Source: Tepidiformaceae bacterium (GTDB taxonomy: Bacteria > Chloroflexota > Dehalococcoidia > Tepidiformales > Tepidiformaceae). Taken from it: a stretch of DNA of 64,000 nucleotides. The stretch spans positions 152,171-216,170 of the forward strand of contig CBDCBZ010000001.1 in the NCBI GenBank assembly GCA_965214395.1, written 5' to 3'. This document shows positions 1 through 60,997 of the stretch, piece after piece. The position numbers were made by a program, and so were the translations under genes. Within the stretch, counting starts at the first letter, position 1, and every line of letters starts with the position of its first letter. Below the pieces are notes generated by a model, which did no database searches, was not told where the DNA came from, and saw nothing but the letters and a program-made list of their open reading frames with translations.

Positions 1-617
1 TGCTGGTGAACAACGCGGGCTACGGGCTCTACGGGCCGCTGGAGGATCTGAGCGAGGACGAGTGCCGGCGGCAGTTCGACACGAATCTGCTGGGGCCGTG
101 GCGGCTGCAGCAGGCCGTGTTGCCGGTGATGCGCGAGCAGGGGTGGGGCAAGGTGGTAAACGTCAGCTCGCTCTCGGGGCAGGTGCCGCGAGCGCTGCGG
201 GGCATGTATGCAGCTTCGAAGCACGCGGTCGAGGCGATGTCGGAGGCACTGGCGGACGAAGTGGCGCCCTTCGGGGTGCAGGTCACGATCCTGCAGCCGG
301 GGCAGTACCGCAGCGACTGGCAGACGCGCGGCCTCGACGTGTGCGAGGCGGTGCGGGCGGGGCGGAGCGCCTACCAGCCGGGGGTGGAGCGCAAGCTGAC
401 GGAATTCCGGGCGGTGGCGGCGACGCGTCCGGGGTCGGACGCGGTGGGGATGGCCATCACAGATGCGGTCCAGCTGCAGCAGCGGGTGCCGGTGCGCTGG
501 CCCCTGGGGGAGGACGCGCTGCGGCTCATCCCCGCGCGCCGGGTCACGCCCGACGACGTCTGGGAGCGGGACCGTCGCGCGGAGGGGTGGGGACTCACCA
601 TGGAGGACATGGCGTAG
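1..617 (+). CDS. short-chain dehydrogenase/reductase (SDR), 5' end outside window
   Basis: The reading frame is open to the window edge (..LVNNAGYG). It carries the SDR NNAG motif and the catalytic YAASK (YxxxK). Stop at 615-617. Confidence 0.85.
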   Translation, partial: LVNNAGYGLYGPLEDLSEDECRRQFDTNLLGPWRLQQAVLPVMREQGWGKVVNVSSLSGQVPRALRGMYAASKHAVEAMSEALADEVAPFGVQVTILQPGQYRSDWQTRGLDVCEAVRAGRSAYQPGVERKLTEFRAVAATRPGSDAVGMAITDAVQLQQRVPVRWPLGEDALRLIPARRVTPDDVWERDRRAEGWGLTMEDMA

Positions 618-621
618 CCGG

Positions 622-1947
622 CTACGGGGCGACGAGGCGGTAGATGCCCTCGTTGTGGAAGCTGATGAGGTAGAGCTCGCCCTGGGAGTCCTCGGCGAAG
701 GAGACAACGGCGTTGGGGCCGCCTGCCCAGAGGAGCACGGGCTCGACGAAGCCACGGGCCGCGGCCGTCTCGGCTTCAATGGCCCAGACGAGGCCGTTGC
801 AGTAGTCGCTGTAGACGTACCAGCCACGAAGGCTGGGGATGGCGTCGCCGCGGTAGACGTAGCCGCCGGTGATCGAGCAGCCGAAGGCGTGCGTGTACTC
901 CCAGACGGGAAGGGTCAGACCGGTGCGGTCACACCCCTGACGCGGGAAGAAACAGCGCGTGCCCTCCATCGTGTTCCAGCCGTAGTTCCCACCCGCCTCG
1001 ACGATGCTGATCTCCTCGACCTCGCCCTGGCCAACGTCGCCGGCCCAGAGCAGGCCGGTCTCCCGGTCGAAGCTCATGCGCCAGGGGTTTCGCAGACCGA
1101 ACGCCCAGGTCTCCGGGCGCACGCCCTCCTGGTCGACGAAGGGGTTGTCGGCAGGGATGGCGTAGGGCTGCCCGGTGGAGGCGTTGCGGACGTCGATGCG
1201 GATCATCGAGCCGAGGAAGGTGCCGAGGTTCTGGCCGTGGCCGTGGGGATCGTTGGCGGCCCCACCATCTCCGTAACCAAGGTAGAGCATCCCGTCGGGG
1301 CCGAAGAGGAGAGTGCCGCCGTTGTGATTGATGTGCGGCTGGCTCAGATCGAAGAGCACGAGTTCGCTCGCGTCGTCGAAGGCGAAGGTTCCGCCCTGTC
1401 CGGTCGTTTCGAAGCGGGAGAGGCGGGTGACGCGCGTGATGGTGTCCGTGCTGTAGTAGACGTACACGTAGCCATTGGCGGCGAACTCGGGGTCGAGGGC
1501 GATGGAGAGGAGCCCCTCCTCGCTGCAGCAGACCGTGCTCTCGCGCTGGTCGTGGACGGTGCTGGGTTCGTCGTAGGGACCGTCCCGGGGCACGGAGAGG
1601 ATGCGCCCCTCCTGCAGGACGATGAGGAAGAGGTCGTGCTCGGGCACATCGATGAGGGCGATGGGCCGCTCCAGCTCCGGGAGGCCGGGAAAGGCGGGGA
1701 CGAGGACGGCGGCGGGGGTTGGCGCCTCGGTGGCGGTCGGAGGTGGGGTGGATGGAGTTTCGGGTGGCGATGTGGCCGTAGGGGTGGGGGAGACGGGAGG
1801 GCGGGTGGGAGTGGCGGTCGGGGTTTCGGGAGCAGCGGTCGGGGTTGACCGGGGCGGCTCGTCCGCCGGGCCGCCGCAGGCAATCAGGAGGGCGCCGGCA
1901 AGGAGACCCGCGGCGAGGGGAAAGAGCCGCCGCGGGCCGGAGCTCAT
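622..1947 (-). CDS. PQQ-dependent sugar (glucose/sorbosone) dehydrogenase-like lipoprotein
   Basis: Lipobox-like N-terminus (LLIACGG) and a ~50-aa Thr/Pro linker. Beta-propeller motifs typical of soluble PQQ sugar dehydrogenases follow (HNGGTLLFGPDGMLYLGYGDGG, DPHGHGQN, GGNYGWN). Confidence 0.8.
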   Translation of the reverse strand: MSSGPRRLFPLAAGLLAGALLIACGGPADEPPRSTPTAAPETPTATPTRPPVSPTPTATSPPETPSTPPPTATEAPTPAAVLVPAFPGLPELERPIALIDVPEHDLFLIVLQEGRILSVPRDGPYDEPSTVHDQRESTVCCSEEGLLSIALDPEFAANGYVYVYYSTDTITRVTRLSRFETTGQGGTFAFDDASELVLFDLSQPHINHNGGTLLFGPDGMLYLGYGDGGAANDPHGHGQNLGTFLGSMIRIDVRNASTGQPYAIPADNPFVDQEGVRPETWAFGLRNPWRMSFDRETGLLWAGDVGQGEVEEISIVEAGGNYGWNTMEGTRCFFPRQGCDRTGLTLPVWEYTHAFGCSITGGYVYRGDAIPSLRGWYVYSDYCNGLVWAIEAETAAARGFVEPVLLWAGGPNAVVSFAEDSQGELYLISFHNEGIYRLVAP

Positions 1948-3119
1948 CCGTCCAGGCGCGTCGCGGCCACGTCGAGGGCCGCGCCGATGTCGGCCTGGAA
2001 GCCGTGCTCGCGCAGGAGGCGTCCCAGGGAGGCGAGGAAGAAGAGCACGTTGCCGGCCGTGGACGACTCGCCCATGAGGCCGACTCGCCAGACGCGGCCG
2101 CCGAGCTCGCCGATGCCGCCGCCAACCTCGATGCCGAAACGCTGGAGCAGGGCGCCGCGGATGTCGGTGTCCGCGATGCCTTCGGGGATCCTGACCGTGG
2201 TGAGGACGGGCAGGCGATAGTCGGCGTCGGCGTGGAGGACGAGGCCCATCGCCTCGAACCCGGCCTGGAGGGCGCGTCCGTGCCGCTCGTGGCGCTCCCA
2301 GCGGTTCTCAAGGCCTTCCTCGAGGACGAGGGCGAGGGCGCGATGGAGGGCGTAGGTCATGGAGATGGGGGAGGTGTGGTGGTAGGCGCGACGGCTGTCC
2401 CAGTAGGCCTCGAGCAGGCCGAGGTCCAGGTACCAGCTGTTGGAAGGCGCCTCGCGGGCCTGGATGGCGCTCCAGGCGGCGGGGGAGAGGGTAACGGGGG
2501 AGGCGCCGGGGGGCGCGGAGAGGCACTTCTGCGTGCCGGAGTAGGCAGCGTCGACACCCCACTCGTCGATCTCGACGGGCACGCCGCCGAGGGAGGTGAC
2601 GCAGTCAAGGAGGAGAAGGGCGCCGTGCGCCTTGCAGAGGGCGGAGATGCCTTCGACGGGCTGGCGGACACCGGTGGAGGTCTCGGCGTGGACGATGGCG
2701 ACGAGCTTCGCCGGTCCGGCGCGCAACTCCCGCTCGATGGCTTCCTCGGGGATGGGGGAGCCCCAGGGGGCGGTCACGATCGTGACCTCGGCGCCGGTGC
2801 GGGCGGCCATCTGGGCGATGCGGTCACCGAAGTAGCCGCAGATGCCGATGATGGCGCGGTCGCCCGGCTGGAGGAGGTTCATGACGGCCGCTTCCATGCC
2901 GCTCGTCCCCGTGCCGGGGGTGGCAAGGGTGACCTCGTTTTCGGTGCGGAAGACCTGCCGCATCATCTGCTGGCATTCGTCCATGATGCGGATGAATTCG
3001 GGGTCGAGGTGGCCGAGGAGGGGCAGGCCCATGGCGGCCAGCACGCTGGTATCGGCGCCGCTGGGGCCGGGGCCCATGAGGACGCGACGGGGCGGATCAA
3101 GGGTTGGAATCTCGCTCAT
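1944..3119 (-). CDS. class V aminotransferase (alanine-glyoxylate / serine-pyruvate type)
   Basis: 391 aa with the PLP-lysine motif SGTQKCL and class V fold-type layout. It overlaps the downstream gene by 4 nt. Confidence 0.85.
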   Translation of the reverse strand: MSEIPTLDPPRRVLMGPGPSGADTSVLAAMGLPLLGHLDPEFIRIMDECQQMMRQVFRTENEVTLATPGTGTSGMEAAVMNLLQPGDRAIIGICGYFGDRIAQMAARTGAEVTIVTAPWGSPIPEEAIERELRAGPAKLVAIVHAETSTGVRQPVEGISALCKAHGALLLLDCVTSLGGVPVEIDEWGVDAAYSGTQKCLSAPPGASPVTLSPAAWSAIQAREAPSNSWYLDLGLLEAYWDSRRAYHHTSPISMTYALHRALALVLEEGLENRWERHERHGRALQAGFEAMGLVLHADADYRLPVLTTVRIPEGIADTDIRGALLQRFGIEVGGGIGELGGRVWRVGLMGESSTAGNVLFFLASLGRLLREHGFQADIGAALDVAATRLDG

Positions 3120-3166
3120 GGGCCAATGCTAACGGCTGACCCCGCTAGGGAACCCTGCCCGTGCCG

Positions 3167-3952
3167 CTAAGGGCCTTCGCTGACGGCGATGAAAACGCCC
3201 CGGCCCGGCTCCTGCTCGACGCCCGCGGTGGGGGCCTGCTCGAAGACGGTGCCCCGGGGGTACTGCTCGTTGCGCCCCTTCACGACGGTAACCACGAACC
3301 CCGCCTCCTCGACGGCGAGGCGGGCGATGTGCTCGGGCTGTCCGATCACGTCGGGGACGACGCCGCGCTGGACGTCGAGGCCGCTGCTCGTGGCGACATC
3401 CTCCGGCTCGCTGGTGGCGGTGGCGCCGGGGGCGGGTGTCGACGCTTCCCCACCCGCGTCGTCGCCGCCGAGGTTGGCGATGACGATGGCGAGCACGACC
3501 ACGAGCGCGGTGACGCCCACGGCAACGGCAACGAGGAGGCCGGTGCGGGCATACGAGAAGGGGCCGGTCCCGATACGGCGGTTGGGGATGGCGACACCGA
3601 TATCGACACCGATCATGGGCTCCTCGGGCACGCGGGAGCCGAACAGGGCGGAGGGGCCGCGGCCGGAGCGACCCTCGCCGGCAGGGGCTCCGGACGGGGA
3701 GGAGGGACCCGGCGAGGGAACGTCCTGGGGGAAGCGGGCGAGCAGAGGGGCGGTATCGAGTCCGAGGTACTGGGAGTAGGAGCGGAGGAATCCGCGCGCG
3801 TAGACGGGCGCGGGGATGATGTCGAAGCGTTCGTCCTCAAGGGATTGGAGGTAGCGGCGGGAGATGCGCGTGTCGCGCTCGGCATCCTCAAGGGTGAGGC
3901 CACGCGCTTCGCGAGCCTCGATCAGCCGCTCACCGATGCCGAGGCCGCTCAT
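3167..3952 (-). CDS. RodZ-like HTH membrane protein with C-terminal PASTA domain
   Basis: N-terminus has an XRE/RodZ-type HTH (IGERLIEAREARGLTLEDAERDTRISRRYLQSLE..PAPVYARGFLRSY). One TM helix (LLVAVAVGVTALVVVLAIVIA) follows. The C-terminal ~65 aa match the PASTA pattern (VVPDVIGQPEHIARLAVEEAGF..GTVFEQAPTAG..VFIAVSEG). Start taken at ATG 3952; the ORF is open to 3982. Confidence 0.7.
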   Translation of the reverse strand: MSGLGIGERLIEAREARGLTLEDAERDTRISRRYLQSLEDERFDIIPAPVYARGFLRSYSQYLGLDTAPLLARFPQDVPSPGPSSPSGAPAGEGRSGRGPSALFGSRVPEEPMIGVDIGVAIPNRRIGTGPFSYARTGLLVAVAVGVTALVVVLAIVIANLGGDDAGGEASTPAPGATATSEPEDVATSSGLDVQRGVVPDVIGQPEHIARLAVEEAGFVVTVVKGRNEQYPRGTVFEQAPTAGVEQEPGRGVFIAVSEGP

Positions 3953-6302: not shown

Positions 6303-6641
6303 TCAGCCTCCGGCGGCGGCGCGGCGCTCGCGGGCCTCGATCGAGTAGGGGAGCTCGTTCATGAATTCGAGCTCCTCCTCCTCGAGGCAGTCGCCGAGGC
6401 CCTTCGACCACTCGCTGAACTCCGGATCCTCACGCGCGAGGGCGAGGACGGAGCGAACGGCGTTGGCGTCGGGCATTTCCCAGAGGTCGTAGCAGCGGTT
6501 GAGGCGGCCGATGCTGTTCTGGTAGGCGCCGTGGAGGCGCCAGCCCTTCTTCTCGAGGACGGGCACAAGGTGCGACATGATCTCCTGGAATTCCTGGGTC
6601 TTCCCGTACTTGCACTCCAGACGAACGAGCAGGAAGGGCAT
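6303..6641 (-). CDS. NIPSNAP-domain protein
   Basis: 112 aa dimeric alpha-beta-barrel-like pattern (..YGKTQEFQEI..L..KGWRLHGAYQNSIGRLNRCYDLWEMPD..). GGAGG RBS. It lies 40 nt downstream of the SelW-like gene on the same strand. Confidence 0.6.
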   Translation of the reverse strand: MPFLLVRLECKYGKTQEFQEIMSHLVPVLEKKGWRLHGAYQNSIGRLNRCYDLWEMPDANAVRSVLALAREDPEFSEWSKGLGDCLEEEELEFMNELPYSIEARERRAAAGG

Positions 6642-6681
6642 TGCGACCTCCGGTCGGGCTTTGGCTGTTGGCTGTTGGTGG

Positions 6682-6933
6682 CTAGGAGAGGCGGTCGGCG
6701 ATGGCCTCCTGCAGCTCCTTCATCTCCGGGTAACGACCGGTCGCCTTCTTCGAGTAGACGAGGTCGCCATCGACCTGCACCTCGAAGGCGCCGCCCGCGC
6801 CGGGCACGAGGGTGAGGGAAGCGGTCTGGTCGGCGAACATGGCGAGAAGTTCCTGGGCCGTCCACGCGGCCCGTGCGGTGTAGTTTCAGGGGACGCAGTA
6901 TTCGATCGAGATGGCAAGGCTCTGCTGGACCAT
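6682..6933 (-). CDS. SelW/Rdx-family selenoprotein (CxxU) with in-frame TGA at 6886-6888
   Basis: ATG 6933 with a GGAGGA RBS. Reading TGA as Sec gives MVQQSLAISIEYCVP-U-NYTARAAWTAQELLAMFADQTASLTLVPGAGGAFEVQVDGDLVYSKKATGRYPEMKELQEAIADRLS, the full Rdx/SelW pattern (IEYCxxUNY..RA..EL..GG.FEV.VDG.L.YSKK..GR.PE). Stop TAG 6682-6684. The ORF track shows only the 15-aa tail of ORF 6886..7146. Confidence 0.8.
6855..6872 (-). promoter_or_regulatory. SECIS-like hairpin downstream of the SelW-like UGA
   Basis: On the minus strand, GGGCCG-CGUGGA-CGGCCC (6-bp GC stem, 6-nt loop containing GU) starts 13 nt after the UGA. This spacing is compatible with bacterial SECIS elements. Confidence 0.5.
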
Positions 6934-7005
6934 GGGGAGTTCCTCCAGATCGGGTCTGTTTGATGTGCAGTCAGTGTAGCGCCCCGAAGGGCTGGGGGCG
7001 GGCGC

Positions 7006-7011
7006 TATAAT
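7006..7011 (+). promoter_or_regulatory. candidate -10 box (TATAAT) in the divergent selenoprotein intergenic region
   Basis: Perfect TATAAT 35 nt upstream of ATG 7046. No convincing -35 was seen. Confidence 0.3.
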
Positions 7012-7045
7012 TCGGGCACGGCGGAACTCTGCCGGGAGGCGCCTC

Positions 7046-7564
7046 ATGGCAACGATCCTGGATCCCACGGACGAGCGCGTTCCGGTACGGCGCTCGCTGA
7101 CGCAGCGGCCGGAGGCGATCAGCGGCACGGTCGCGCTGCTGGACATCTCGAAGCCGCGCGGCGACGTGCTGCTCGATCAGCTCGAGGTGCGGCTGCGCGA
7201 GCGGCTTCCCGAGGTCGACGTGCTTCGCTACAGCAAGCCGACCTTCACCAAGCCCGCGCCGGAGGCGCTGCGGCAGGAGCTGGCCAAGGAGGCCGACTTC
7301 GTCGTCGAAGGGTTAGCCGACTGAGGGTCGTGTACGACGTGCAGTGTGCACGACACGACCTGGCTGGAAATCAACGGCATCCCCTCGGTCTTCATTGCTT
7401 CGGACGAGTTCGAAGAGGCGGCGGAAGCGCAGGCTGAGTCGCTCGGATTGCCGGAGGTGCAACGCCTGTTCGTGCCGCACCCCATCCAGGACGCGAACGA
7501 CGATGAGATGCGGTCGAAGGCGGATGCGATCGTGGACGACGTGATCGCGGCGTTGATCGACTAG
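7046..7564 (+). CDS. UGSC-motif selenoprotein with in-frame TGA at 7322-7324
   Basis: Track ORFs 7046..7324 and 7346..7564 are in the same frame and separated only by TGA plus 7 sense codons. The read-through gives ..FVVEGLAD-U-GSCTTCSVHDTTWLEINGIPSVFIASDEFEEAA.. (172 aa). GGGAGG RBS 7 nt before the ATG. Confidence 0.8.
7326..7360 (+). promoter_or_regulatory. SECIS-like extended hairpin immediately after the UGSC UGA
   Basis: GGTCGTGT (7326-7333) pairs perfectly with ACACGACC (7353-7360). An inner stem CGTGCA (7338-7343) pairs with TGCACG (7347-7352), loop GUG, with a 4-nt 5' bulge ACGA. That is 14 bp in total. Confidence 0.6.
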
Positions 7565-7617
7565 AAGCGGGAAACGCGGCGTTCCGCGCCTAGGACGCCG
7601 CGCGATACACTGGACCC

Positions 7618-10233
<2,616 letters not shown>

Positions 10234-18374: not shown

Positions 18375-19949
18375 ATGAACACGATCGAGTTCCTTCAGAT
18401 CTCCGCCGCCGTCGTGCCCGAACGGGAGGCGCTGGTGGAGGTGGGCGGGGCCGGCCGCCGCCTCAACTACGCCGAGATGCAGGAGCAGGTGACCCGCCTG
18501 GCGAACGCCATCCGGGGCCTGGGCGTGGAGCAGGGCCAGAAGGTCGCCGTGATGGCGCAGAACAGCGTGGACTTCGTGCTGACGTACTACGCCTGCGCGA
18601 TGCTGGGCGTAACCCTCGTCCCGCTGAACTACCGCTCGAAGGACGAAGAGCTGACGCACATGCTCAACGTGAGCCAGGCGGAGGTGCTGTTCGTCTCGGA
18701 GCGCTACCTGGAGCTGGTCAATCGCATCCGGCCAGGGCTGACCCACACGAAGACGTTCGTGAGCTACGACGGACCGGCTGAGGGCTACCGCGACTTCGCC
18801 GGCCTGGTGGCGGGGGCAGTGGCGGAGGACATCTGGGTAGAGGTGGACGACGAGCAGCCCACGGTCCTCATCTTCACGAGCGGCACGACGGCGCTACCGA
18901 AGGGCGTGATGATTACGTTCCTCGACATGACCGCCTACGTCACGAACACGATGAACCCGGCCGACCCGGACGTACACGACAAGACGGTGGTCTCGGTGCC
19001 GTTCTTCCACATCGCGGGGGCGACGGCGATGCTCTCCTCAATCTGGGGTGGGCGCACGCTGCTGGTGCTGCCGCAGTTCACGCCGGAGGGCTGGCTGTCG
19101 GCGGTGGGCGACGAGGGTGCGACGCACTCGATGGTCGTGCCGACGATGCTGAAGCGCATCATGGAGCACGAGGCGCTGGAGAAGACGAGCCTCGACACCC
19201 TGCAGCTCATTACCTACGGGGCGGCGCCGATGCCGTACGAGGTGGTGCGCAAGGCATGCGACATCTTCCCGCAGCAGGGCGTAGGCCTGATGAACGCCTA
19301 CGGACAGACGGAATCGACCTCCACGCTGACCTACCTGGGCCCCGACGACCACGACCTGAGCGTCGACATGGACGTGCGGGAGGCGCGCCTGCGCTCGGTG
19401 GGCCGGCCCATGGACGATGTCGAGATCGGCATCATGGACGACCGCAACGTGCTGCTCGAGCCGGGCGACGAGGGCGAGATTTGCGTCCGCTCCGACCGCG
19501 TGATGAAGGGCTACTACGAGCAGGAGGACGCCACCAGCACAGCGATCATCGACGGCTGGCTGCACACCGGCGACGTGGGCCGCGTGGACGAAGGCGGCTA
19601 CCTGTTCATCACCGGGCGGAAGAAGGACCTCATCATCCGCGGCGGCGAGAACATCTCGTCGGGCGAGGTGGAGAACTGCCTCGAGGACCATGAGGGCATC
19701 GACGAAGCCGCCGTCATCGGCGTCCCGGACGTGGACTGGGGCGAGGTGGTGAAGGCGGTGCTTGTACCGAAGCCGGGAGCCACGCTCACGCCGGAGGACG
19801 TGAACGCCTACTGCAAGAGCCGGATCGCGTCATTCAAGGCGCCGCAGTACATCGCGGTGGTGGACGAGCTGCCGCGCAACGCCATGGGCAAGGTGCTCAA
19901 GAACGACCTTCGCAAGCTGTACGGCTCGCCCACGAACGACAACGCATGA
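18375..19949 (+). CDS. AMP-dependent acyl-CoA synthetase/ligase
   Basis: AMP-binding motif IFTSGTTALPKGV, then YGQTE and GWLHTGDVG..DEGGYLFITGRKKDLI. GGAGGGAG RBS before ATG 18375. Confidence 0.9.
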   Translation: MNTIEFLQISAAVVPEREALVEVGGAGRRLNYAEMQEQVTRLANAIRGLGVEQGQKVAVMAQNSVDFVLTYYACAMLGVTLVPLNYRSKDEELTHMLNVSQAEVLFVSERYLELVNRIRPGLTHTKTFVSYDGPAEGYRDFAGLVAGAVAEDIWVEVDDEQPTVLIFTSGTTALPKGVMITFLDMTAYVTNTMNPADPDVHDKTVVSVPFFHIAGATAMLSSIWGGRTLLVLPQFTPEGWLSAVGDEGATHSMVVPTMLKRIMEHEALEKTSLDTLQLITYGAAPMPYEVVRKACDIFPQQGVGLMNAYGQTESTSTLTYLGPDDHDLSVDMDVREARLRSVGRPMDDVEIGIMDDRNVLLEPGDEGEICVRSDRVMKGYYEQEDATSTAIIDGWLHTGDVGRVDEGGYLFITGRKKDLIIRGGENISSGEVENCLEDHEGIDEAAVIGVPDVDWGEVVKAVLVPKPGATLTPEDVNAYCKSRIASFKAPQYIAVVDELPRNAMGKVLKNDLRKLYGSPTNDNA

Positions 19950-22210
19950 GCGCGCAGCCAGCCTCCCCGGAGAAGCCACCAGCCGTGACGGACACGCCTC
20001 AGAAGAAGGGCTCGCGCTTCAATGTGAGCGTCCTGGGCATCGCTGTGCCCGTGGCGGTGATCGCCGCCATCGGCGCGCTGGAGACGGCGCAGACGGAGCG
20101 CGCCAGCCGCGAGGTGTTCTTCAACATCCAGGGCTTCGCCGTGATGTACTTCATCTTCGGCATCGCCGTGGCCGTGATCGTGGGGGCGTTCGTGCAGCGC
20201 CTGCGGGTGTGGCGGCTGGGACGCAGCCACAACGTCTTCAACGACCTGGGGGCGCGGCTCACGAACGCGCTCACGCTGGGAGCGGGCACGGGCCGCGTCA
20301 CGAACGACCGCTACGCGGGCGTGATGCACTGGTGCATCTACTCGAGCTTCGCGGTCCTGACGCTGGTGACGATCCTGCTGGCGATCGACGACTACTTCGA
20401 CCTGATCTTCCAGGTCGGCAGCGAGCACGCCTTCCTCGAAGGAGGCGTCTACCTGGCCTACAGCTTCGTGGGCGACCTGTTCGGGATCATCGGCCTGGTG
20501 GGCATCGGCATGGCGGTGTTCCGCCGCTTCGGCCCGGCGCCGGCGAAGCTGACCTGGGACCGGCGGCAGTCGGAAGACGCGATCGTCGTCGGGCTGCTGG
20601 GGTTCGTGCTGTTCACGGGCTTCCTCGTCGAGGGGCTGCGCATTGGCGGACACGAGATTCCGCTGGGGAACGAGAACTGGTCGTACTGGTCGCCGGGCGG
20701 CTGGGTGATCGCGAAGATCGTGGGCGGGGCGAGCGTGAGCGCGCTGCTGACCGCGCACCAGGTCTTCTGGTGGATCCACGTGGTGGGCGCCTTCAGCCTG
20801 CTGACGCTGATGGCCCTGACGAAGTTCCGGCACATCATCTTCGCGCCCGTTAACGCGTTCCTGAAGCGGCCGGCGGTTCCCTCGTACCTGGCGCCGATGG
20901 GCGACTTCGAGCAACTCATCGAGGAAGGCGCGAGCCTCGGCGCGGGCAAGGTCCAGGACCTCTCCTGGAAGCAGCTCTTCGACGCCGACACGTGCGTGCG
21001 CTGCGGGCGCTGCACGGATGCCTGTCCGGCCTACACGGCGGGCCAGCCGCTCTCGCCCATGGCGATCATCCAGGATCTGAAGTCGTACATGAACCACGCC
21101 GGACCGCTCCTGATCGCGGGGAAGGACCCGGCCGAGAAGGTCGACGGGGAGCTGGTGGGCGACTACGTCAAGGACGAGTCGCTGTGGGCCTGCCGCACGT
21201 GCATGGCGTGCGTGCAGGAGTGCCCCGTGCTGATCGAGCACGTGCCCACGATTGTCGACATGCGTCGCTACCTGGTGATGGAGCAGGCGCGCATCCCGGG
21301 GACGGCGCAGGAGACGCTGCAGAACATCGAGCAGCGCGGCCATCCCTGGCGGGGCACGCAGCTCACTCGCGAGACGTGGATGGAGCAGCTCCGCGAGGAG
21401 GGCATCGATGTGCCCATCTTCGACGGGTCGCAGGAGTACCTGTACTGGGTGGGCTGCTCGGGGGCGCTGGTGGAGCGCAACATGCCCATCACGAAGTCGG
21501 TGGTGCGGCTGCTGATCGAGGCGGGCGTGAGCTTCGGCGTGCTGGGACAGCAGGAGACGTGTACGGGCGACCCCGCCCGGCGGCTCGGCAGCGAGTTCCT
21601 CTACGCGACACTGGCGGAGACGAACGTCGCCTCGATGAACGAGATCGGCGTGCGGCGCGTGATCACGGCCTGCCCGCACTGCTTCAACACCTTCAAGAAC
21701 GAGTACCCGGACTTCGACGGGCAGTGGGAGGTCACGCATCACGCGGAGTTCCTCCAGCTGCTGCTGGCGCAGGGCAAGCTGCAGCCGAAAAAGATGGACG
21801 GGCAGACGATTACCTACCACGACTCGTGCTACCTGGGGCGAGGCAACGGCATCATGGACGCACCTCGCGACGTGCTGGAACAGATTCCGGGCGCCGAGCT
21901 GGTGGAGATGCCGCGCAGCCGCGAGCAGGGCATGTGCTGCGGCGCCGGCGGCGGCAACATGTGGATGGAGGAGTCGGGCACGCGCGTGAACCACCTGCGC
22001 ACGGCGGAGGCGGCGAACACGGGTGCGAGCATCGTGGCGACGGCCTGCCCGTTCTGCATCCAGATGTTCGAGGACGGCATTCCCGCGGTGCAGCCGGACG
22101 AGGATGCACGCTCGATCCAGGCGTTCGACATCGCGGAGCTGCTCGAAGTGAGCGTGGCGCCGCCGCGCCCGGCGGGCGAGGGCGCGATTCCCCCGGGGGT
22201 CACGGGCTAG
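19946..22210 (+). CDS. membrane-anchored (Fe-S)-binding oxidoreductase, HdrD/DsrK/EtfD-like
   Basis: N-terminal ~300 aa with multiple TM helices bearing conserved His. Two 4Fe-4S ferredoxin motifs (CVRCGRCTDACP, CRTCMACVQECP) and two CCG-type Cys-rich repeats (VGCSG..CPHCFNTF; YHDSCYLGR..MCCGAGGG..CPFCIQM) follow. ATGA overlap with the acyl-CoA synthetase stop. Confidence 0.8.
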   Translation: MSAQPASPEKPPAVTDTPQKKGSRFNVSVLGIAVPVAVIAAIGALETAQTERASREVFFNIQGFAVMYFIFGIAVAVIVGAFVQRLRVWRLGRSHNVFNDLGARLTNALTLGAGTGRVTNDRYAGVMHWCIYSSFAVLTLVTILLAIDDYFDLIFQVGSEHAFLEGGVYLAYSFVGDLFGIIGLVGIGMAVFRRFGPAPAKLTWDRRQSEDAIVVGLLGFVLFTGFLVEGLRIGGHEIPLGNENWSYWSPGGWVIAKIVGGASVSALLTAHQVFWWIHVVGAFSLLTLMALTKFRHIIFAPVNAFLKRPAVPSYLAPMGDFEQLIEEGASLGAGKVQDLSWKQLFDADTCVRCGRCTDACPAYTAGQPLSPMAIIQDLKSYMNHAGPLLIAGKDPAEKVDGELVGDYVKDESLWACRTCMACVQECPVLIEHVPTIVDMRRYLVMEQARIPGTAQETLQNIEQRGHPWRGTQLTRETWMEQLREEGIDVPIFDGSQEYLYWVGCSGALVERNMPITKSVVRLLIEAGVSFGVLGQQETCTGDPARRLGSEFLYATLAETNVASMNEIGVRRVITACPHCFNTFKNEYPDFDGQWEVTHHAEFLQLLLAQGKLQPKKMDGQTITYHDSCYLGRGNGIMDAPRDVLEQIPGAELVEMPRSREQGMCCGAGGGNMWMEESGTRVNHLRTAEAANTGASIVATACPFCIQMFEDGIPAVQPDEDARSIQAFDIAELLEVSVAPPRPAGEGAIPPGVTG

Positions 22211-31659: not shown

Positions 31660-31721
31660 ACCGGCTCCCTTCTTCCATCCTTGACAGTGGGGGAAGGGGA
31701 GCCATACACTCGCGACGGCTT

Positions 31722-31890
31722 TTTTCGTCCGGGTGCCCGTCCCAGGGAGAATAGGGAAGGCGGTGAGAATCCGCCGCGGTAGCGCCACTGTAATCGGGAA
31801 GACGGAGCCGAAGCCCACTGTCGGCAAGCCGATGGGAAGGGCCCGGCACTAACCAACCCGTAAGCCAGGAGACCTGCCTGGACGAGAGGT
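31722..31890 (+). promoter_or_regulatory. cobalamin (AdoCbl) riboswitch aptamer
   Basis: Core elements appear in the right order: AAUAGGGAA-GGCGGUGAGAAUCCGCC-GCGGUAGCGCCACUGUAA, and the B12 box AAGCCAGGAGACCUGCC at 31862-31878. It lies upstream of the btuC-like permease. Confidence 0.9.
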
Positions 31891-31958
31891 GTCACTTCTC
31901 CGCTATAGAGAGGTGCCCTCGATCTCCGGGCACCGATCCGGGCAGGTCGAACAAGGTA

Positions 31959-31988
31959 CCCCCAGCGGAGACGCTGGGGGTTTCTGTT
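31959..31988 (+). terminator. intrinsic terminator (riboswitch expression platform)
   Basis: CCCCCAGCG-GAGA-CGCUGGGGG (9-bp stem, 4-nt loop) followed by UUUCUGUU, between the aptamer and ATG 32029. Confidence 0.8.
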
Positions 31989-32028
31989 GCAGGCGGTCGG
32001 ACTCGCGACACTGCGCGGCTATCGGCGG

Positions 32029-33063
32029 ATGGGCATCGGCGCCCGCCTGGCGATCGGCGGGACGGTCCTGCTGGCGCTCGTGCTGGTCGTCGGCCTGGTC
32101 TCGCTGAGCCTCGGTCCGGTCGATATCTCCGCCGGCGACGTGGCCTGGATCGTGCTCTCCGCCATCGGGTTGGACACACCCGAGTTCGGGCGCACGGAAC
32201 AGCTCGTGATCGAGCAGATCCGGCTGCCGCGGATCATCGTGGGCGCCTCGGTGGGGATGGCGCTGGGGGTGGCGGGGGCGACGATGCAGGGGCTGTTCCG
32301 CAACCCAATGGCCGACCCCGGCATCATCGGGGTGTCGGCGGGAGGGGCGCTGGGGGCGGTGGTGGCGATTGCGGCGGGCCTGACGGGGCTGTTCTTCCTA
32401 GCGCTCCCGGTCTTCGCCTTCGCGGGGGCGATCGCGGCGGCGTTCCTCGTGTACGGCATCGCCGTGGCCGGGGGGCACTTCTCGATGGCGACCCTGCTGC
32501 TGGCGGGCGTCGCCGTGAATGCGTTCCTGGGGGCGATCGTCTCCGCGATCATCATCTTCCTGCCCGACAACGAGGCGCTTCGGGAGATCCTGTTCTGGCT
32601 CGCGGGCGGGCTGGACGCGCGCGCCTGGGAGCACGTCCGCATCGCCACGCCCCTGATCCTGGGGAGCACCGCCCTGCTCCTGATCATGTCGCGCGACCTG
32701 AACCTGCTGATGCTGGGCGACGACGAAGCGCGCTCGATGGGCGTGCGCGTCGGCGTGACGCGCGTGGCCCTGCTTGCGATCGCGGCGCTGGCCACGGGCG
32801 CGGCCGTCGCCGTGAGCGGGACCATCGCCTTCGTCGGCCTGGTGACGCCGCACGTGCTGCGGCTCCTGATGGGCCCCGACAACCGCGTGCTCATCCCGAT
32901 GAGCGCCCTGGGGGGCGCCGTCTTCGTGATGGTGGCGGACACCGTCGCGCGGATGGTCATCGAGCCGGCCGAACTGCGGGTCGGGATTCTCACGGCGTTC
33001 GTGGGAGCGCCGTTCTTCATCGCCCTTCTCATCACGAACAAACGGCAGGTCTACGCGCTATGA
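32029..33063 (+). CDS. btuC: FecCD/BtuC-type ABC permease (cobalamin/corrinoid uptake)
   Basis: Polytopic FecCD-family sequence (..RLPRIIVGASVGMALGVAGATMQGLFRNPMADPGIIGVS..). ATG 32029 was preferred because TTG 31987 lies inside the terminator U-tract. Confidence 0.85.
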   Translation: MGIGARLAIGGTVLLALVLVVGLVSLSLGPVDISAGDVAWIVLSAIGLDTPEFGRTEQLVIEQIRLPRIIVGASVGMALGVAGATMQGLFRNPMADPGIIGVSAGGALGAVVAIAAGLTGLFFLALPVFAFAGAIAAAFLVYGIAVAGGHFSMATLLLAGVAVNAFLGAIVSAIIIFLPDNEALREILFWLAGGLDARAWEHVRIATPLILGSTALLLIMSRDLNLLMLGDDEARSMGVRVGVTRVALLAIAALATGAAVAVSGTIAFVGLVTPHVLRLLMGPDNRVLIPMSALGGAVFVMVADTVARMVIEPAELRVGILTAFVGAPFFIALLITNKRQVYAL

Positions 33064-33090
33064 GCGTGGGCCTGCTGCAAAGGAGTCACC

Positions 33091-34275
33091 GTGTCCCTTA
33101 AGCCATTCCGTCTACTTGTTGTGCCGCTCGCCCTGCTGGTGCTGGGGCTAGCGCTGGCGGCCTGCTCCTCCGACGAGGAGTCGCCCGCGACGCCGGAGCC
33201 CACAGCAGCGGCGACGCCTGCTCCAACGGCGACCGCAACCGCTGAACCGACCGAGGCGCCAACGGAGACGCCGACGGAGGCAGCAACGGCGACGGCCGCT
33301 GCCACGGAGGCGGCCACGCCCCAGCCAACGCCGGAACCGACACCCGTGGCGCGGTCGCTCGAAGGCGTGAAGGGCATCGTCGACCATACGAACACGGGCT
33401 GGCCCCGCGAGGTCGAGGGCCTGAACGGGGTCGTCAGCATTCCCGCGAAGCCGGTGCGCATCATTACGGCCTCGGTGGGGCACGACGAGATGACGCTGGC
33501 GATCGTGCCGAGCGACAGGCTGGTGGCCATCGGCGGGGCGACGAAGAACGAGACCTACTCGAACGTGGCCCACCTGGTGCAGGAGAAGGCGGAGATCTCG
33601 CGGGACCCGGAGATCATCATCGCGCAGTCTCCAGATGTAGTCGTGACCAGCCCGTTCTTCCCAATCGAGGTGGTCGAGGCGCTCATACGAGCGGGCATCC
33701 CCGTCATCCAGACGGAACTGGAGCAGGGCCCGGAGTCGCGCATCGAAGCGATCCTGCTGATGGGGTACATCTACGGCGAGGAGGAACGCGCCTTCGAGTT
33801 CGCCGACGAGGTGCAAGCGCGCTACGAAGCCCTGGTGGACGTCACGGGCGTGAAGGAGCCCAAGCCGCGGGTGCTCGCCCTGACGCAGTACTCGGACACG
33901 CTCTGGGTCGCGGGCGGTCGTTCGACCGAGGGCGGCGTGATCACAGCGGCGGGCGGTCTCAACGCCGCCGAGGACGCGGGAATCACCGGGAACCAGACGA
34001 CAAGCCTCGAGGGGGTGATCGCAATGGCCCCGGACATCATCATCATTCCGCAGCCGGTTGCGTTCGGCGCAGAGGAGTTCCGGCAGAGCCTGCTGGAGCA
34101 CGAGGCGCTGGCCGAGCTGCCGGCGATCAAGAACGGCGCGGTCTTCGTCGTGGAGAGCAAGCACTTCACGACGCTGTCGTACTGGAACATTCGCGGAGCG
34201 GAGGACCTGGCGCGCATGCTGTGGCCGGACGACTTCCCCGATCCGCCGGCAGAATCCTTCAGCCTGGCCGAGTAG
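33091..34275 (+). CDS. ABC substrate-binding lipoprotein, BtuF/FhuD class (cluster A-II)
   Basis: Lipobox LALAACSS and a ~70-aa Thr/Pro/Ala/Glu tether, then a periplasmic-binding-protein type 2 fold (..PVRIITASVGHDEMTLAI..; ..PDIIIIPQP..). Confidence 0.8.
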   Translation: MSLKPFRLLVVPLALLVLGLALAACSSDEESPATPEPTAAATPAPTATATAEPTEAPTETPTEAATATAAATEAATPQPTPEPTPVARSLEGVKGIVDHTNTGWPREVEGLNGVVSIPAKPVRIITASVGHDEMTLAIVPSDRLVAIGGATKNETYSNVAHLVQEKAEISRDPEIIIAQSPDVVVTSPFFPIEVVEALIRAGIPVIQTELEQGPESRIEAILLMGYIYGEEERAFEFADEVQARYEALVDVTGVKEPKPRVLALTQYSDTLWVAGGRSTEGGVITAAGGLNAAEDAGITGNQTTSLEGVIAMAPDIIIIPQPVAFGAEEFRQSLLEHEALAELPAIKNGAVFVVESKHFTTLSYWNIRGAEDLARMLWPDDFPDPPAESFSLAE

Positions 34276-34283
34276 GTGGCGAT

Positions 34284-35183
34284 ATGAGCACGAACGGACA
34301 CACTCCCGCACCGGCATCGGTCGACGCGCAGGCCGTCTCCTTCAGCGTCGAGGCGAAAACGCTGCTGGACCGGGTCGACATGCGCGCGGAGCGGGGCCAG
34401 TTCGTCGGGCTGATCGGCCCGAACGGGGCGGGAAAGTCGACCCTGCTGCGGACGCTCTCCGGGGTGTTGCGGCACCAGCAGGGGGCAGTCTGGCTGGAGG
34501 GGTCGGACCTGGGGGCGATGCGTGCCAGGGACGTGGCCGCGATGCTCGCGCTGGTCCCGCAGATCGCGCCCTACACGCAGGGCTTCACGGCCTTCGAGCT
34601 CGTCCTGATGGGGCGCTATCCCCACCTGGGGCGGTTCGCGGTGGAGGGGCAGGCAGACGACCGTATCGCCCGCGATGCGATGCTCCTGACCGAGACCGAC
34701 CACTTCGCCCCGCGAACGCTGGACACGCTCTCGGGCGGGGAGCGCCAGCGGGTGTTCCTGGCGCGGGCGCTGGCGCAGCAGCCGCGCGTGCTGCTGCTCG
34801 ACGAACCCACCTCGAACCTCGACATCCTGCACCAGCTCACGATCCTCGGGCTGGTGCGGCAGCTGGTGGACAACGGCCTGACGGCAATCGCGGCCATCCA
34901 CGACCTGAATCTCGCGGCGCGTTACTGCGACCGGCTGGTGCTGCTGAGCAACGGCGGGGTGGTCACGGAGGGGGCGCCGGAGGAGGTGCTGACGCCGGAG
35001 ACGATCGAATCGGCGTTCGGGGTGCGTGCGGCCATCTACCGCGAGCCGGTGGCGGGCGCCCTCGCCATCAGCCTGATCGAGCCGGCAGCGGGGGCGGACG
35101 CCGTCGCGCATGCCGGCACCGAGGGCGATAACGGCCGGGCTCCCGCCGGCAAGAACGGTGTGGCCAGTGCCATCCCCCGATGA
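34284..35183 (+). CDS. ABC transporter ATP-binding protein (BtuD/FecE type)
   Basis: Walker [10 protein letters not shown], signature LSGGERQR and Walker [12 protein letters not shown] 34284. Confidence 0.9.
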
Positions 35184-35760
35184 CGCGGTAGACGCAGGCA
35201 CGGAGCTGGGGGACGCCCCCGCAACCGGGTCGCGACGCGTGCGACACGGCCTGGTCGTCGTCAACACGGGCGAGGGCAAGGGGAAGACGACGGCTGCGCT
35301 TGGCGTCCTGTTCCGGGCGTGGGGGCGGGACTATCGGGTGCGGATGTTCCAGTTCATCAAGCACTCGACCGCGCGCTTCGGGGAGCACCGGGCGGCGAAG
35401 AAGCTCGACATTCGAATCGAGGCGATGGGGGACGGCTTCACCTGGCTCTCGAAGGACATGGACCAGACGACGGCACTTGCCGTGGCCCAGTGGGAGCGCT
35501 GCAAGGAGGCGATCCTGGCGGGCGGCGAGGACATCATCATCCTCGACGAATTCACCTACGCCATGCACTACGGCTGGGTGGAAGTCGGTGACGTAGTCGA
35601 GACGCTGCGGCGGAGGCCGGAGGGGATGCACGTCATCATCACCGGCCGGTACGCGCCGGAGGAGTTGGTCGAGTTCGCGGACCTCGTGACAGAGATGAAG
35701 CTGATCAAGCACCCGTACGAGGAGCAGGGCATCGGTGCCCAGCCGGGGTTGGAGTACTAG
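35110..35760 (+). CDS. cobO: cob(I)yrinic acid a,c-diamide adenosyltransferase
   Basis: [34 protein letters not shown]....GE......ILDEFTYA...G......ITGR is the CobO/BtuR (CobA-type) pattern. Start uncertain (ATG 35110 or GTG 35158); it overlaps the ATPase 3' end. Confidence 0.85.
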
Positions 35761-35762
35761 CG

Positions 35763-36824
35763 ATGTCGGTGGCGGACGTGGTGGCGGGGATCGGACCGGC
35801 GGACCCGGTCGCGCGGGAGGCCGCACGGCTGCGACAGGCGCGCCTGACGAAGCCCCCGGGGAGCCTCGGGCGGCTGGAGGATCTGTCGTTAAAGGTAGCG
35901 GCGGTCCAGGGAACGGAGTGCCCGGTCGTACGGGGGAAGGCGGTCGTGGTGGCGGCGGCGGATCACGGGGTGGTGACCCAGGGCGTCACCGGGTATCCGC
36001 AGGAGGTCACCGCACAGATGGTGCTGAACTTCCTGGCAGGCGGGGCGGCCGTGAGCGTGATGGCCCGGCGCCAGAGCGTGCGGCTTGTGGTTGTCGATGC
36101 GGGGGTAGCCACGCCGCTGGCGCCGCACCCGGAGCTGCGCGCGCTGGGCATCGGGCGCGGCACGGCGGACATGACCCAGGGACCAGCGATGTCGCGGGAG
36201 CAGGCGGAGGCCTGCGTGCTGGCGGGCGTCGGGATTGCGCGCGAGCTCGCAGATGAAGGGGCGGAGGTCATCGGGACAGGGGACATGGGTATCGGGAACA
36301 CGACCGCGTCGAGCGCCATCACAGCGGCGCTCACGGGCAGGCCCGCTCGCCAGACGACCGGTCGGGGGACGGGCCGGAACGACGAGGAGCTGGAGCACAA
36401 GGTGGCGGTGGTGGAGCGGGCGCTGACGGTGAACCGGCCCGACGCGGGGGACGGTCTGGACGTACTCGCCAAGGTGGGTGGCTTCGAGATCGGCGTGCTG
36501 GCGGGGGTGGTGCTGGGCGGAGCGCTGACGCGCCGCGTAGTCGTGCTCGACGGGTTCATCTCGGGGGCGGCGGCGCTGGTCGCGCACAGCCTGTGCCCGA
36601 CCGTAGCCGACTACCTCGTGGCCTCGCACCTCTCTTCGGAGGCATGGCACGGGGTCGTGCTCTCGCACCTGGGGCTGCGGCCGCTGCTGGACCTGGGGAT
36701 GCGGCTGGGGGAGGGCACGGGAGCAGTGCTGGCCATGGGGCTGGTCGAGGCGGCGGCTTCGTGCCTGACGGAGATGGCGACGTTCGACGAGGCGGGGGTC
36801 TCCGGCGCGGATTCCGGGAACTGA
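35763..36824 (+). CDS. cobT: nicotinate-nucleotide--dimethylbenzimidazole phosphoribosyltransferase
   Basis: ..LTKPPGSLGRLEDL..., GDMGIGNTT and ..LDGFISGAAAL.. are canonical CobT motifs. Confidence 0.92.
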   Translation: MSVADVVAGIGPADPVAREAARLRQARLTKPPGSLGRLEDLSLKVAAVQGTECPVVRGKAVVVAAADHGVVTQGVTGYPQEVTAQMVLNFLAGGAAVSVMARRQSVRLVVVDAGVATPLAPHPELRALGIGRGTADMTQGPAMSREQAEACVLAGVGIARELADEGAEVIGTGDMGIGNTTASSAITAALTGRPARQTTGRGTGRNDEELEHKVAVVERALTVNRPDAGDGLDVLAKVGGFEIGVLAGVVLGGALTRRVVVLDGFISGAAALVAHSLCPTVADYLVASHLSSEAWHGVVLSHLGLRPLLDLGMRLGEGTGAVLAMGLVEAAASCLTEMATFDEAGVSGADSGN

Positions 36825-36834
36825 GGGGATCGCG

Positions 36835-37596
36835 GTGACGAGCCTGCGGCTGGCCATCGGCTTCCTCACGGTGCTTCCGGTGGCCCCGGGGGGAGAGGCG
36901 CGGATGGGTCCGGCGCGGGCGTGGTTCCCGCTGGTGGGGCTGGGGCTGGGAGGCATCCTGCTGGGGCTCGATGTGGCGGCGCGGGAGGGGCTGCCGGCGC
37001 TGGTGGTGGGGGCGATCCTCGTGGCGGCCCTGCTCGTGCTGACGCGGGCTATCCACACGGAGGGGTTCCTCGACTGCTGCGACGGGCTGTTCGGCGGGTA
37101 CACGCGCGAGGAGCGCCTGCGCATCCTGCGGGACACGCACGTGGGCGCATTCGCGGTCATCGGCGGGGCCGCCCTGCTGCTGCTGAAGTGGAGCGCGCTC
37201 GCCGGCATCCCGGACGAGGCTCGCACGGGACTGCTGGTGGTGTTTCCCTGCCTGTCGCGGTTCGGCATGGTCGCGACGATGGCGCTGTTCCCGTACGCGC
37301 GGGAGCAGGGGTTGGGCACATCGTTCCAGGAGGGGCGCAACTGGTGGCAGGTGGGGTTCGGTCTGGCTACGGCTGCCGTGGCGGCAGTGCTGTTCCTCGG
37401 GGGCGGGGGGGCGATCCTGGTGGGGGTCGTGGTCGTGGTGGCGCTGGGACTGGGGCGGTGGATGACGGGGATGCTGGGCGGGATGACGGGCGACACTTAC
37501 GGGGCGGTCAACGAGGTGGGGGAGGTGGCTGTGCTGGTGCTGGGCATCGCGCTGTTCTCGGCAATCCCGGAGATTTTCGGAGCGCCGCTCTGGTAG
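36835..37596 (+). CDS. cobS: adenosylcobinamide-GDP ribazoletransferase (cobalamin synthase)
   Basis: LAIGFLTVLPV.. N-terminus, polytopic, 253 aa, position in the cob operon. GTG start. Confidence 0.85.
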   Translation: MTSLRLAIGFLTVLPVAPGGEARMGPARAWFPLVGLGLGGILLGLDVAAREGLPALVVGAILVAALLVLTRAIHTEGFLDCCDGLFGGYTREERLRILRDTHVGAFAVIGGAALLLLKWSALAGIPDEARTGLLVVFPCLSRFGMVATMALFPYAREQGLGTSFQEGRNWWQVGFGLATAAVAAVLFLGGGGAILVGVVVVVALGLGRWMTGMLGGMTGDTYGAVNEVGEVAVLVLGIALFSAIPEIFGAPLW

Positions 37597-37620
37597 ACAC
37601 TGAGCCTTGAGGAGCACCAC

Positions 37621-38160
37621 GTGAGCAAGCGACTGACGCTGATCCTGGGAGGGGCGCGGGCGGGGAAGAGCACGTACGCGCAGCAGCTGGCAGCGAGCGG
37701 CGAGCGCGTCCTGTTCGTGGCGACGGCGGAGGCGGGCGACCGGGACATGGAGGCGCGCATCGCCGCGCATCGCGCGGGCCGTCCGGCGGCGTGGGACACG
37801 ATCGAGGAGCCTCTCGACCTCGTCGGGGCGCTGGCGCCGGTCGCAGACCGGTACGACACGGTTCTGCTGGACTGCCTGACCCTCTGGGTGAGCAACCTGC
37901 TGCTGCAGGGCTCGGAGGCCGAACCGGTCGACATCCCCAAGGAGGTGGGGCGGCTGCTGGCGGCGTACGAGGGGGGGTCTGCCTCCTGGATCGTCGTCAG
38001 CAACGAGGTGGGCCTGGGCGTGGTGCCTCCGACCGATCTGGGGCGCCGCTACGCGGACGAGCTCGGGCGGGCAAACCAGATCGTGGCGGCGGCGGCGGAC
38101 GACGTCTACTTCATGGCGGCGGGGCTGCCGCTCAACCTGAAGGCGCTGAGCCGGGAGTAG
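37621..38160 (+). CDS. cobU: bifunctional adenosylcobinamide kinase / adenosylcobinamide-phosphate guanylyltransferase
   Basis: P-loop LILGGARAGKS, ..ATAEA.D.EM..RI..H...R...W.T.E.. and ..LLDCLTLWVSN. 179 aa. GAGGAG RBS. Confidence 0.9.
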   Translation: MSKRLTLILGGARAGKSTYAQQLAASGERVLFVATAEAGDRDMEARIAAHRAGRPAAWDTIEEPLDLVGALAPVADRYDTVLLDCLTLWVSNLLLQGSEAEPVDIPKEVGRLLAAYEGGSASWIVVSNEVGLGVVPPTDLGRRYADELGRANQIVAAAADDVYFMAAGLPLNLKALSRE

Positions 38161-38169
38161 GCGCCGCCT

Positions 38170-49879: not shown

Positions 49880-50241
49880 CGCGGTCGCTCCGGGACCACC
49901 GGGGGCGCCAGGCGTCGCCAGTGAGCGCAACATCCGGCACCACTGTCCTCACGACTCCGTCGGGGGCTCTGGCTGAGGAGTATCCAACGTATGTGGAGTT
50001 CCTCCGCGCGACCGCCCGCGGTATCGCGGAGTGAGGCGGCGTGCTGGTGGGCCTAACTTGACGGTAGGCAGTACCACCTTCGAGGTGTTGTTCAGCCTGT
50101 AGCCGGGGCTCGAATGACGACGCGCCCACCGTCCTTGATTTCCACGTACAGGCTGTAGCCATCGAGCAGCCGCATGCCGACGAGCCCACAATCTCTCTAT
50201 CTCCGCCGGGCTGCACGGTTACAGGGAATCCTGGCCGGTGT

Positions 50242-60895: not shown

Positions 60896-60907
60896 GGAGA
60901 AGTAAAC

Positions 60908-60918
60908 GGGGGGGGGGG
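60908..60918. repeat. G11 (C11 on the coding strand) homopolymer at the 5' end of the giant gene
   Basis: agtaaacGGGGGGGGGGGtacg. It lies 13-23 nt upstream of ATG 60895, and inside the ORF (TPPP) if ATG 60925 or 60958 is used. Confidence 0.95.
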
Positions 60919-60997
60919 TACGCATCACACAATCCCCTTGGCAACCCAAGCCCGACATCTACCCCGCTCGCATCTACTATAGCGCAAACGCCCTTAC

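Follow-up and report, generated by a model that had tools for sequence, protein, structure and literature searches.

The window, a 64-kb stretch of DNA from a Tepidiformaceae (Dehalococcoidia) genome, very probably carries at 7046–7564 on the plus strand a single gene for a UGSC-family selenoprotein, translation of which continues through an in-frame UGA. The complete coding sequence comprises 172 codons followed by a TAG stop (7562–7564), with the UGA (7322–7324) at codon 93, where it opens the sequence U-G-S-C-T-T-C. An earlier note on this DNA had proposed that two ORFs called separately, 7046–7324 and 7346–7564, are one frame split by a UGA, and our analysis bears this out: the two ORFs share a common frame, and between them lie only the TGA and seven sense codons (7325–7345), which encode G-S-C-T-T-C-S. 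The GTG at 7346, picked as a start by a mechanical ORF finder, is Val101 of the read-through frame. The ATG at 7046 is the earliest possible start downstream of the in-frame upstream stop, and 6 nt before it on the plus strand is a GGGAGG sequence (7034–7039) that, from its sequence, is likely the ribosome-binding site. The resulting product of 172 residues contains ...EGLAD-U-GSCTTCSVHD..., and thus the U-G-S-C motif to which the earlier note had drawn attention. A perfect TATAAT hexamer (7006–7011, plus strand) precedes the start codon by 35 nt; it is part of the 112-bp intergenic region that separates the gene from a divergent neighbour. A scan of 6600–7700 for promoter and terminator consensus sequences identified no consensus sites, and the TATAAT was not called as a promoter because it has no −35 match.

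The read-through product belongs to the UGSC family

Searches of the 172-residue product against profile HMMs, with Cys replacing Sec, matched it to NCBIfam NF041046 "UGSC family (seleno)protein" at 168.4 bits (cutoff 125), over positions 4–146 of a profile of 147, and to Pfam PF24696 "UGSC family" at 166 bits (cutoff 25), over positions 1–170 of 172, the Pfam match beginning at residue 3. NF041046 is an equivalog model, and the family name that the earlier note had given is indeed its name. Both matches cover nearly the full length of the profile and run across the TGA, and therefore one model spans both of the ORFs.

Scanning a single genome for each species yielded 509 relatives, of which we kept the best 80 loci. 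The closest relatives among these best 80 of 509 are in Tepidiformaceae (Dehalococcoidia) metagenome-assembled genomes and are 87–95% identical to the window protein; the remaining loci of the 80 are from Dehalococcoidia, Anaerolineae, Binatia, Gamma-, Delta- and Alphaproteobacteria (including the isolate Sulfitobacter sp. M05) and Acidimicrobiia. The UGSC-containing protein has been counted among the major aquatic selenoprotein families, the GOS survey having recorded 255 forms with Sec and 21 with Cys (PMC2398784); its UxxC motif and a "likely Trx-like fold" have been recorded, and it is treated as a family of unknown function (PMC2398784; also PMC9312934, PMC5029168, PMC13188914). A 2026 review lists it under NF041046, with ABI76733.1 as the example (PMC13188914). 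The gene in the window has the same motif at the same column and the same size as this family, most forms of which contain Sec, and we find no substantive difference between them. Coming from a Tepidiformaceae genome, it is an ordinary and routine member of a curated family that has been documented since the 2000s. A literature search for Tepidiforma together with selenocysteine found no papers.

Homologues carry TGA or a Cys codon at the Sec column

The earlier note had suggested checking whether homologues carry Cys or Sec at the column of the UGA, and this is what we find. A TGA is present at the homologous codon in 80/80 loci (the best 80 of 509), in the context ..EALAD-U-GSCTTCSVHD.. and across several phyla, and also in four additional loci (L081–L084). 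Among full-length database entries, two have Cys at this column: P0003, whose DNA (locus L085, 947–1486) has TGT at the Sec column and encodes a single polypeptide of 179 aa, and P0005, for which the Cys is seen at the protein level. The other full-length entries have W or G (P0002, P0004 and P0001). The W of P0004 is a TGA in the DNA (L086, 460–462) that was translated with genetic code 4, and by analogy the W or G of the remaining entries (P0001 and P0002) is presumably also a TGA translated under another genetic code. The G in P0001 would fit code 25.

A conserved stem-loop immediately follows the UGA

The DNA after the UGA can be folded, as the earlier note had described, into a hairpin with an 8-bp outer stem beginning one nucleotide after the UGA, a 6-bp inner stem and a GUG loop. 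The whole hairpin occupies 7325–7361 (plus strand), with an outer stem (7325–7333 with 7353–7361) that has nine pairs if a closing G·U is included, or eight Watson–Crick pairs otherwise, a 4-nt bulge on the 5′ side (7334–7337), and an apical stem-loop at 7338–7352 (CGUGCA, 7338–7343; GUG loop, 7344–7346; UGCACG, 7347–7352) that starts 13 nt after the UGA. The note had further held that such a structure is unlikely to be accidental in coding sequence and fits a SECIS element. As regards the window sequence by itself, this is borne out only modestly: a 60-nt stretch has a minimum free energy of −24.2 kcal/mol compared with −17.1 ± 2.7 for shuffled sequences (z = −2.6), and 3 of 200 shuffles fold as well. 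The folding energy of the single sequence is thus only modestly beyond chance, and it is the comparative data that carry the case for the hairpin.

For these comparisons we used a gap-free alignment (A1) of 58 distinct 48-nt post-UGA sequences, namely that of the window (7322–7369) and 57 others. The inner helix (columns 17–22 with 26–31) forms standard pairs in 100% of cells, in all 58 of the distinct sequences; the changes it contains are five of G-C to G-U and two double compensatory ones (G-C to A-U in L023 and A-U to G-C in L061), and G23 and U24 of the loop are invariant. The outer helix, on the other hand, pairs in only 68.8% of cells. Of the hairpin that the earlier note had expected to find conserved in orthologues, the inner stem-loop is therefore retained and the outer stem is not; the latter appears, from these sequences, to be largely lineage-specific, and we do not count it in the putative core SECIS element. 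Covariation in the hairpin is thin, with two double changes only, and whole-structure shuffle controls are not decisive; the covariation statistics are weak because the element hardly varies. The diversity at synonymous sites gives a stronger test. Specifically, the synonymous entropy at codons 98–101 (ACG UGC AGU GUG) is 0.10, 0, 0 and 0 bits, compared with ~1–2 bits at other conserved four- and six-fold codons, and the rare Ser codon AGU is used in 79/79 of the Ser-coding sequences. This freezing of synonymous sites indicates that an RNA element overlaps the coding sequence and, together with the inner pairing in 58/58 sequences, upholds the part of the earlier claim that the single-sequence energy left modestly supported.

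The archetype of bacterial SECIS elements, that of Escherichia coli fdhF, is a hairpin just 3′ of the UGA with a GU in the apical loop that is bound by SelB, and the minimal helix of bacterial SECIS elements lies ~11 nt after the UGA. The window element is likewise a conserved stem-loop 3′ of the UGA with G(U) in its apical loop, in agreement with the consensus for such elements. It resembles fdhF-type elements in lying within the coding sequence right after the UGA and in having a short apical stem and an invariant loop G-U, and its distance from the UGA is fixed at 13 nt, a distance that is identical in the neighbouring selenoprotein gene described below. It differs from them in having another sequence, a nominal loop of only 3 nt (GUG) and no conserved bulged U. 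Judged by these sequence features, the stem-loop at 7338–7352 is the presumed SelB-binding element. Rfam scans, at the gathering threshold over the whole window and at E ≤ 10 over 6600–7700, returned no SECIS or tRNA-Sec model, a result that is uninformative for bacterial SECIS elements.

GUGCAC is a palindrome and occurs more than once, which allows a different pairing of the same region, of columns 4–14 with 25–35. Variation at column 25 disrupts this pairing, which forms in 79% of cells and gains compensatory changes in L061; we did not adopt it as the SECIS, although it may remain as a competing fold. At two loci (L061 and L072) V and T replace T97 and V101, respectively, a swap that preserves both candidate RNA pairings. 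The apical nucleotides of the SECIS are near-identical across Chloroflexota, Proteobacteria, Acidimicrobiia and Binatia, which could reflect a dual constraint on protein and RNA or else horizontal gene transfer. We also note that the DNA encoding the Cys form (L085) keeps the CGUGCA-GUG-UGCACG hairpin sequence after its TGT codon. This may indicate a recent conversion of Sec to Cys, or that the nucleotides are held by something besides SECIS function.

A second selenoprotein gene adjoins the UGSC gene

On the minus strand, 112 bp from the start of the UGSC gene and divergent from it, is a gene for an Rdx/SelW-like selenoprotein (6682–6933) with a CxxU motif. Its reading frame contains a TGA (6886–6888) in the context ...IEYCVP-U-NYTARAAW..., and its product matches Pfam PF10262 at 93 bits and TIGR02174 at 73 bits. 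The TGA is followed by a hairpin at 6855–6872 that has a 6-bp stem (GGGCCG/CGGCCC) and a GUG-containing loop and that starts, as in the UGSC gene, at nucleotide 17 counted from the U of the UGA. Both the TGA and the hairpin (GGGCCG-CGUGGA-CGGCCC) are conserved in 13 Tepidiformaceae loci. The Rdx gene is a second selenoprotein gene, and serves as an internal control for the geometry of TGA plus hairpin.

Genes for the Sec-decoding machinery are absent from the 64-kb window: Pfam scans covering 48 ORFs of the window detected no selA, selB or selD, and no tRNA-Sec was detected, ARAGORN reporting only a tRNA-Leu, and Rfam and ARAGORN together only this tRNA and a cobalamin riboswitch. Such genes are, however, found beside an orthologue. 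Specifically, the isolate genome of Sulfitobacter sp. M05 (locus L052) contains a compact cluster (17–3510) made up of the C-terminus of selB (PF09107; 17–937), a tRNA-Sec (951–1044), a 520-aa ORF with a redoxin domain (1414–2976) and the UGSC gene with its TGA (3001–3510), so that selB and tRNA-Sec lie ~2 kb upstream of the UGSC orthologue. Support for Sec decoding is thus strong though indirect, coming from the neighbouring Rdx gene with its TGA, from purifying selection downstream of the UGA (see below) and from the selB and tRNA-Sec of Sulfitobacter, and we infer that the residue inserted at the UGA in this organism is Sec.

Were the UGA read through without insertion of Sec, a near-cognate or suppressor tRNA would place Trp, Cys or Gly at the codon, with the hairpin acting as a general stimulator of read-through; alternatively, the Sec machinery might have been lost. 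The lack of Sec machinery in the 64-kb window and the W or G given at this codon in some databases would be in keeping with this idea, which we nevertheless regard as very unlikely. Of 21 genes of the window that were verified with Pfam, 11 end in TGA, secA among them, and therefore the genetic code is the standard one, with no reassignment of TGA, and the recoding is site-specific. Furthermore, the one W entry that was checked (P0004) resulted from applying an alternative translation table to a TGA. The codon also falls at the redox position that Sec or Cys occupies in a curated selenoprotein family, a gene of an unrelated selenoprotein family next door has the same TGA-plus-hairpin geometry, and in Sulfitobacter selB and tRNA-Sec adjoin the orthologue.

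Translation continues beyond the UGA

Conserved amino acids, together with variation at synonymous sites, are evident to both sides of the in-frame UGA, in one frame. Across 81 genes, codons 94–97 (G, S, C and T) show 98–100% amino-acid conservation together with synonymous variation of 0.9–1.8 bits; being kept as amino acids while varying synonymously, these codons show that translation in this frame covers the stretch separating the two ORFs. The seven codons of the gap are in fact the most conserved residues of the UGSC protein. In comparisons with eleven Tepidiformaceae relatives, dN/dS was 0.03–0.07 for the segment after the UGA and 0.05–0.16 for the segment before it, so that constraint on the post-UGA segment is no weaker than on the pre-UGA segment.

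Public gene calls for the locus give a different picture, consisting of exactly 92 aa and 72 aa, as would be expected of two separate small genes, one for a protein ending ...EGLAD and the other for a protein initiated at the GTG at 7346. The protein database seems at first sight to agree: it contains 1,523 matches, and among the matches listed most are 94–100 aa long, covering 52% of the query, with the short entries that we fetched terminating at ...EALAD. These short entries are truncations made by gene callers that stop at the TGA, since in the DNA a conserved ORF follows in the same frame, and the case that the earlier note had named as one that would count against it, that homologues end at ..EGLAD, is thereby contradicted. 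Two genes are also hard to reconcile with the finding that the 92-aa and 72-aa fragments each match PF24696 and are spanned by a single profile, or with the synonymous-only variation of the seven codons that separate the TGA from the GTG. The GTG at 7346 encodes the conserved Val101, no separate ribosome-binding site is evident in the sequence upstream of it, and the Cys form, checked at the level of DNA, is one polypeptide. We therefore consider it extremely improbable that the locus comprises two genes.

That the gene is a pseudogene, in which a Cys codon mutated to TGA and left a dead remnant downstream, would need a single base change from TGT or TGC in a family in which Cys forms exist, but this can be given almost no credence in view of the TGA at the same codon in all 80 loci across phyla (the best 80 of 509), the downstream frame that is intact in each of them with no frame-shifts, extra stops or neutral evolution seen, the low downstream dN/dS in Tepidiformaceae and the conservation of the hairpin at the level of RNA.

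The UGSC protein is predicted to have a flavodoxin-like fold

Sequence and profile searches of the PDB returned nothing meaningful for the UGSC protein. The Cys-form homologue P0003, which is 56% identical to the window protein, was modelled with AlphaFold at high confidence (pLDDT 91.4, pTM 0.85). The model consists of five consecutive β-α units, and the Sec/Cys column is residue 95, between a strand (E87–93) and a helix (H96–111), which places Cys95 at the β3/α3 junction, at the N-terminus of α3. Comparison of the model with the PDB using Foldseek returned flavodoxin, CheY, B12-binding and lumazine-synthase-type domains with TM scores of 0.35–0.49, and there was no thioredoxin-fold entry among the best 50 matches. 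The fold of the UGSC protein is thus predicted to be flavodoxin-like rather than thioredoxin-like. In P0003 the motif is positioned at a helix N-terminus right after a β strand, as is the CxxC of thioredoxin-fold oxidoreductases, to which the UxxC of UGSC proteins has been likened; the five β-α units of the model, however, are unlike the thioredoxin fold.

The motif itself extends beyond UxxC, since U-x-x-C-x-x-C (U-G-S-C-T-T-C) is invariant and both of its Cys residues are 100% conserved (81 genes). The same U-x-x-C-x-x-C motif has been reported for GrdB/F/H (PMC13188914, PMC6778437), and is common to UGSC proteins and selenoprotein B of the glycine, sarcosine, betaine and D-proline reductases (GrdB/F/H and PrdB; PF07355). 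The UGSC protein differs from GrdB and PrdB in being much smaller, and neither a GrdE/PrdA-like nor a GrdA-like neighbour was detected. A Pfam scan of the window protein at E ≤ 10 gives only PF24696 and no GRDB, so that we retain the resemblance to GrdB/PrdB at the level of the motif only.

Combining these features, we propose that a ribosome would start at the ATG at 7046 and reach the UGA at 7322–7324, where SelB carrying Sec-tRNA(Sec) would be held by the apical stem-loop at 7338–7352, which has GU in its loop and starts 13 nt after the UGA. Selenocysteine would then be inserted in place of termination, and translation would go on to the TAG at 7562–7564 to give the 172-residue protein. Sec93, opening the U-x-x-C-x-x-C motif, would likely form a selenol/thiol redox centre, with a Sec93–Cys96 selenenylsulfide as an intermediate of its cycle.

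The genomic neighbourhood of the UGSC gene differs between lineages

The gene order in Tepidiformaceae is DHDPS, dCTP deaminase-like, NIPSNAP and Rdx on the minus strand, followed by UGSC and secA on the plus strand. This order, from DHDPS to secA, is conserved in most of the eleven loci L001–L011, and in L081–L084. Most non-Tepidiformaceae lineages show a different arrangement, with an ORF of ~520 aa directly upstream of the UGSC gene on the same strand in 61 loci within L013–L080 (for example, L050 1349–2926 and L052 1414–2976). The predicted product of this ORF has an N-terminal redoxin-like (AhpC/TSA) region with CxxC and an uncharacterised C-terminal domain of ~340 aa that is covered by no Pfam or NCBIfam family, and paralogues of the latter domain occur downstream of UGSC in marine Dehalococcoidia (for example, L050 3596–4624 and 4609–5712). 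A tblastn search found no homologue of the ~520-aa partner in the window. The local context of the window gene thus differs from that of most of its UGSC relatives in that the upstream partner is absent and a divergent Rdx/SelW-like selenoprotein gene adjoins it. Our guess is that the ~520-aa ORF might correspond to the 'Unknown_1' domain that was reported in the GOS paper to be fused to UGSC.

One tentative, and on balance doubtful, reading of the fold, the motif and the neighbourhood would make the UGSC protein, rather than a redox protein of thioredoxin fold, a small flavodoxin-like subunit of a selenoenzyme, with a GrdB-like UxxCxxC centre, that works with the ~520-aa partner in most lineages; in Tepidiformaceae, the window included, this locus would have lost the partnership, and a pairing with the divergent SelW-like (CxxU) protein would have replaced it.

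Other features of the window

Several features elsewhere in the window deserve mention. A cobalamin riboswitch (Rfam RF00174, 110 bits) at 31714–31895 on the plus strand is located directly upstream of a transport and cobalamin-salvage cluster (31909–41738) that encodes FecCD, a periplasmic binding protein, CobA/BtuR, a CobT-like protein (DBI_PRT), CobS and CobU; CobQ and CobD are encoded on the other strand. At 55259–60958 (minus strand) there is a gene for a 1,899-aa protein with Calx-beta, cadherin-like and LapA domains; it adjoins a gene for a 402-aa Calx-beta protein (53863–55071, plus strand), and a 655-aa leucine-rich-repeat protein is encoded upstream of these Calx-beta genes (50068–52035, plus strand). 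These three look like large surface or adhesin-type proteins. Finally, the gene at 19946–22210 (plus strand) encodes an HdrD/GlpC-like protein in which a CCG domain is combined with a 4Fe-4S dicluster and a nitrate-reductase-gamma-like region. Relatives of such proteins are sometimes selenoproteins.

Discussion

The UGSC gene of the window contributes nothing new about the family itself, and the side results of our analysis bear modestly on its function. The points that are mildly new are the flavodoxin-like predicted fold, the invariant UxxCxxC motif, the conserved ~520-aa partner found elsewhere and the SECIS nucleotides that are near-invariant across phyla. If the UGSC protein does act as a flavodoxin-like subunit of the kind outlined above, this would point to a Sec-dependent reductase system, as yet undescribed, in aerobic bacteria of marine and soil habitats.

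For annotation the consequences are more immediate. Standard gene callers split the UGSC gene into fragments of 92 aa and 72 aa, and the Rdx gene is cut to a fragment of 52 aa, which is all that the public gene calls contain of it. The UGSC gene and its SelW-like neighbour should each be annotated as a single selenoprotein gene, the UGA being entered as a translation exception. Together, the two genes mark this Tepidiformaceae genome as that of a probable user of Sec.
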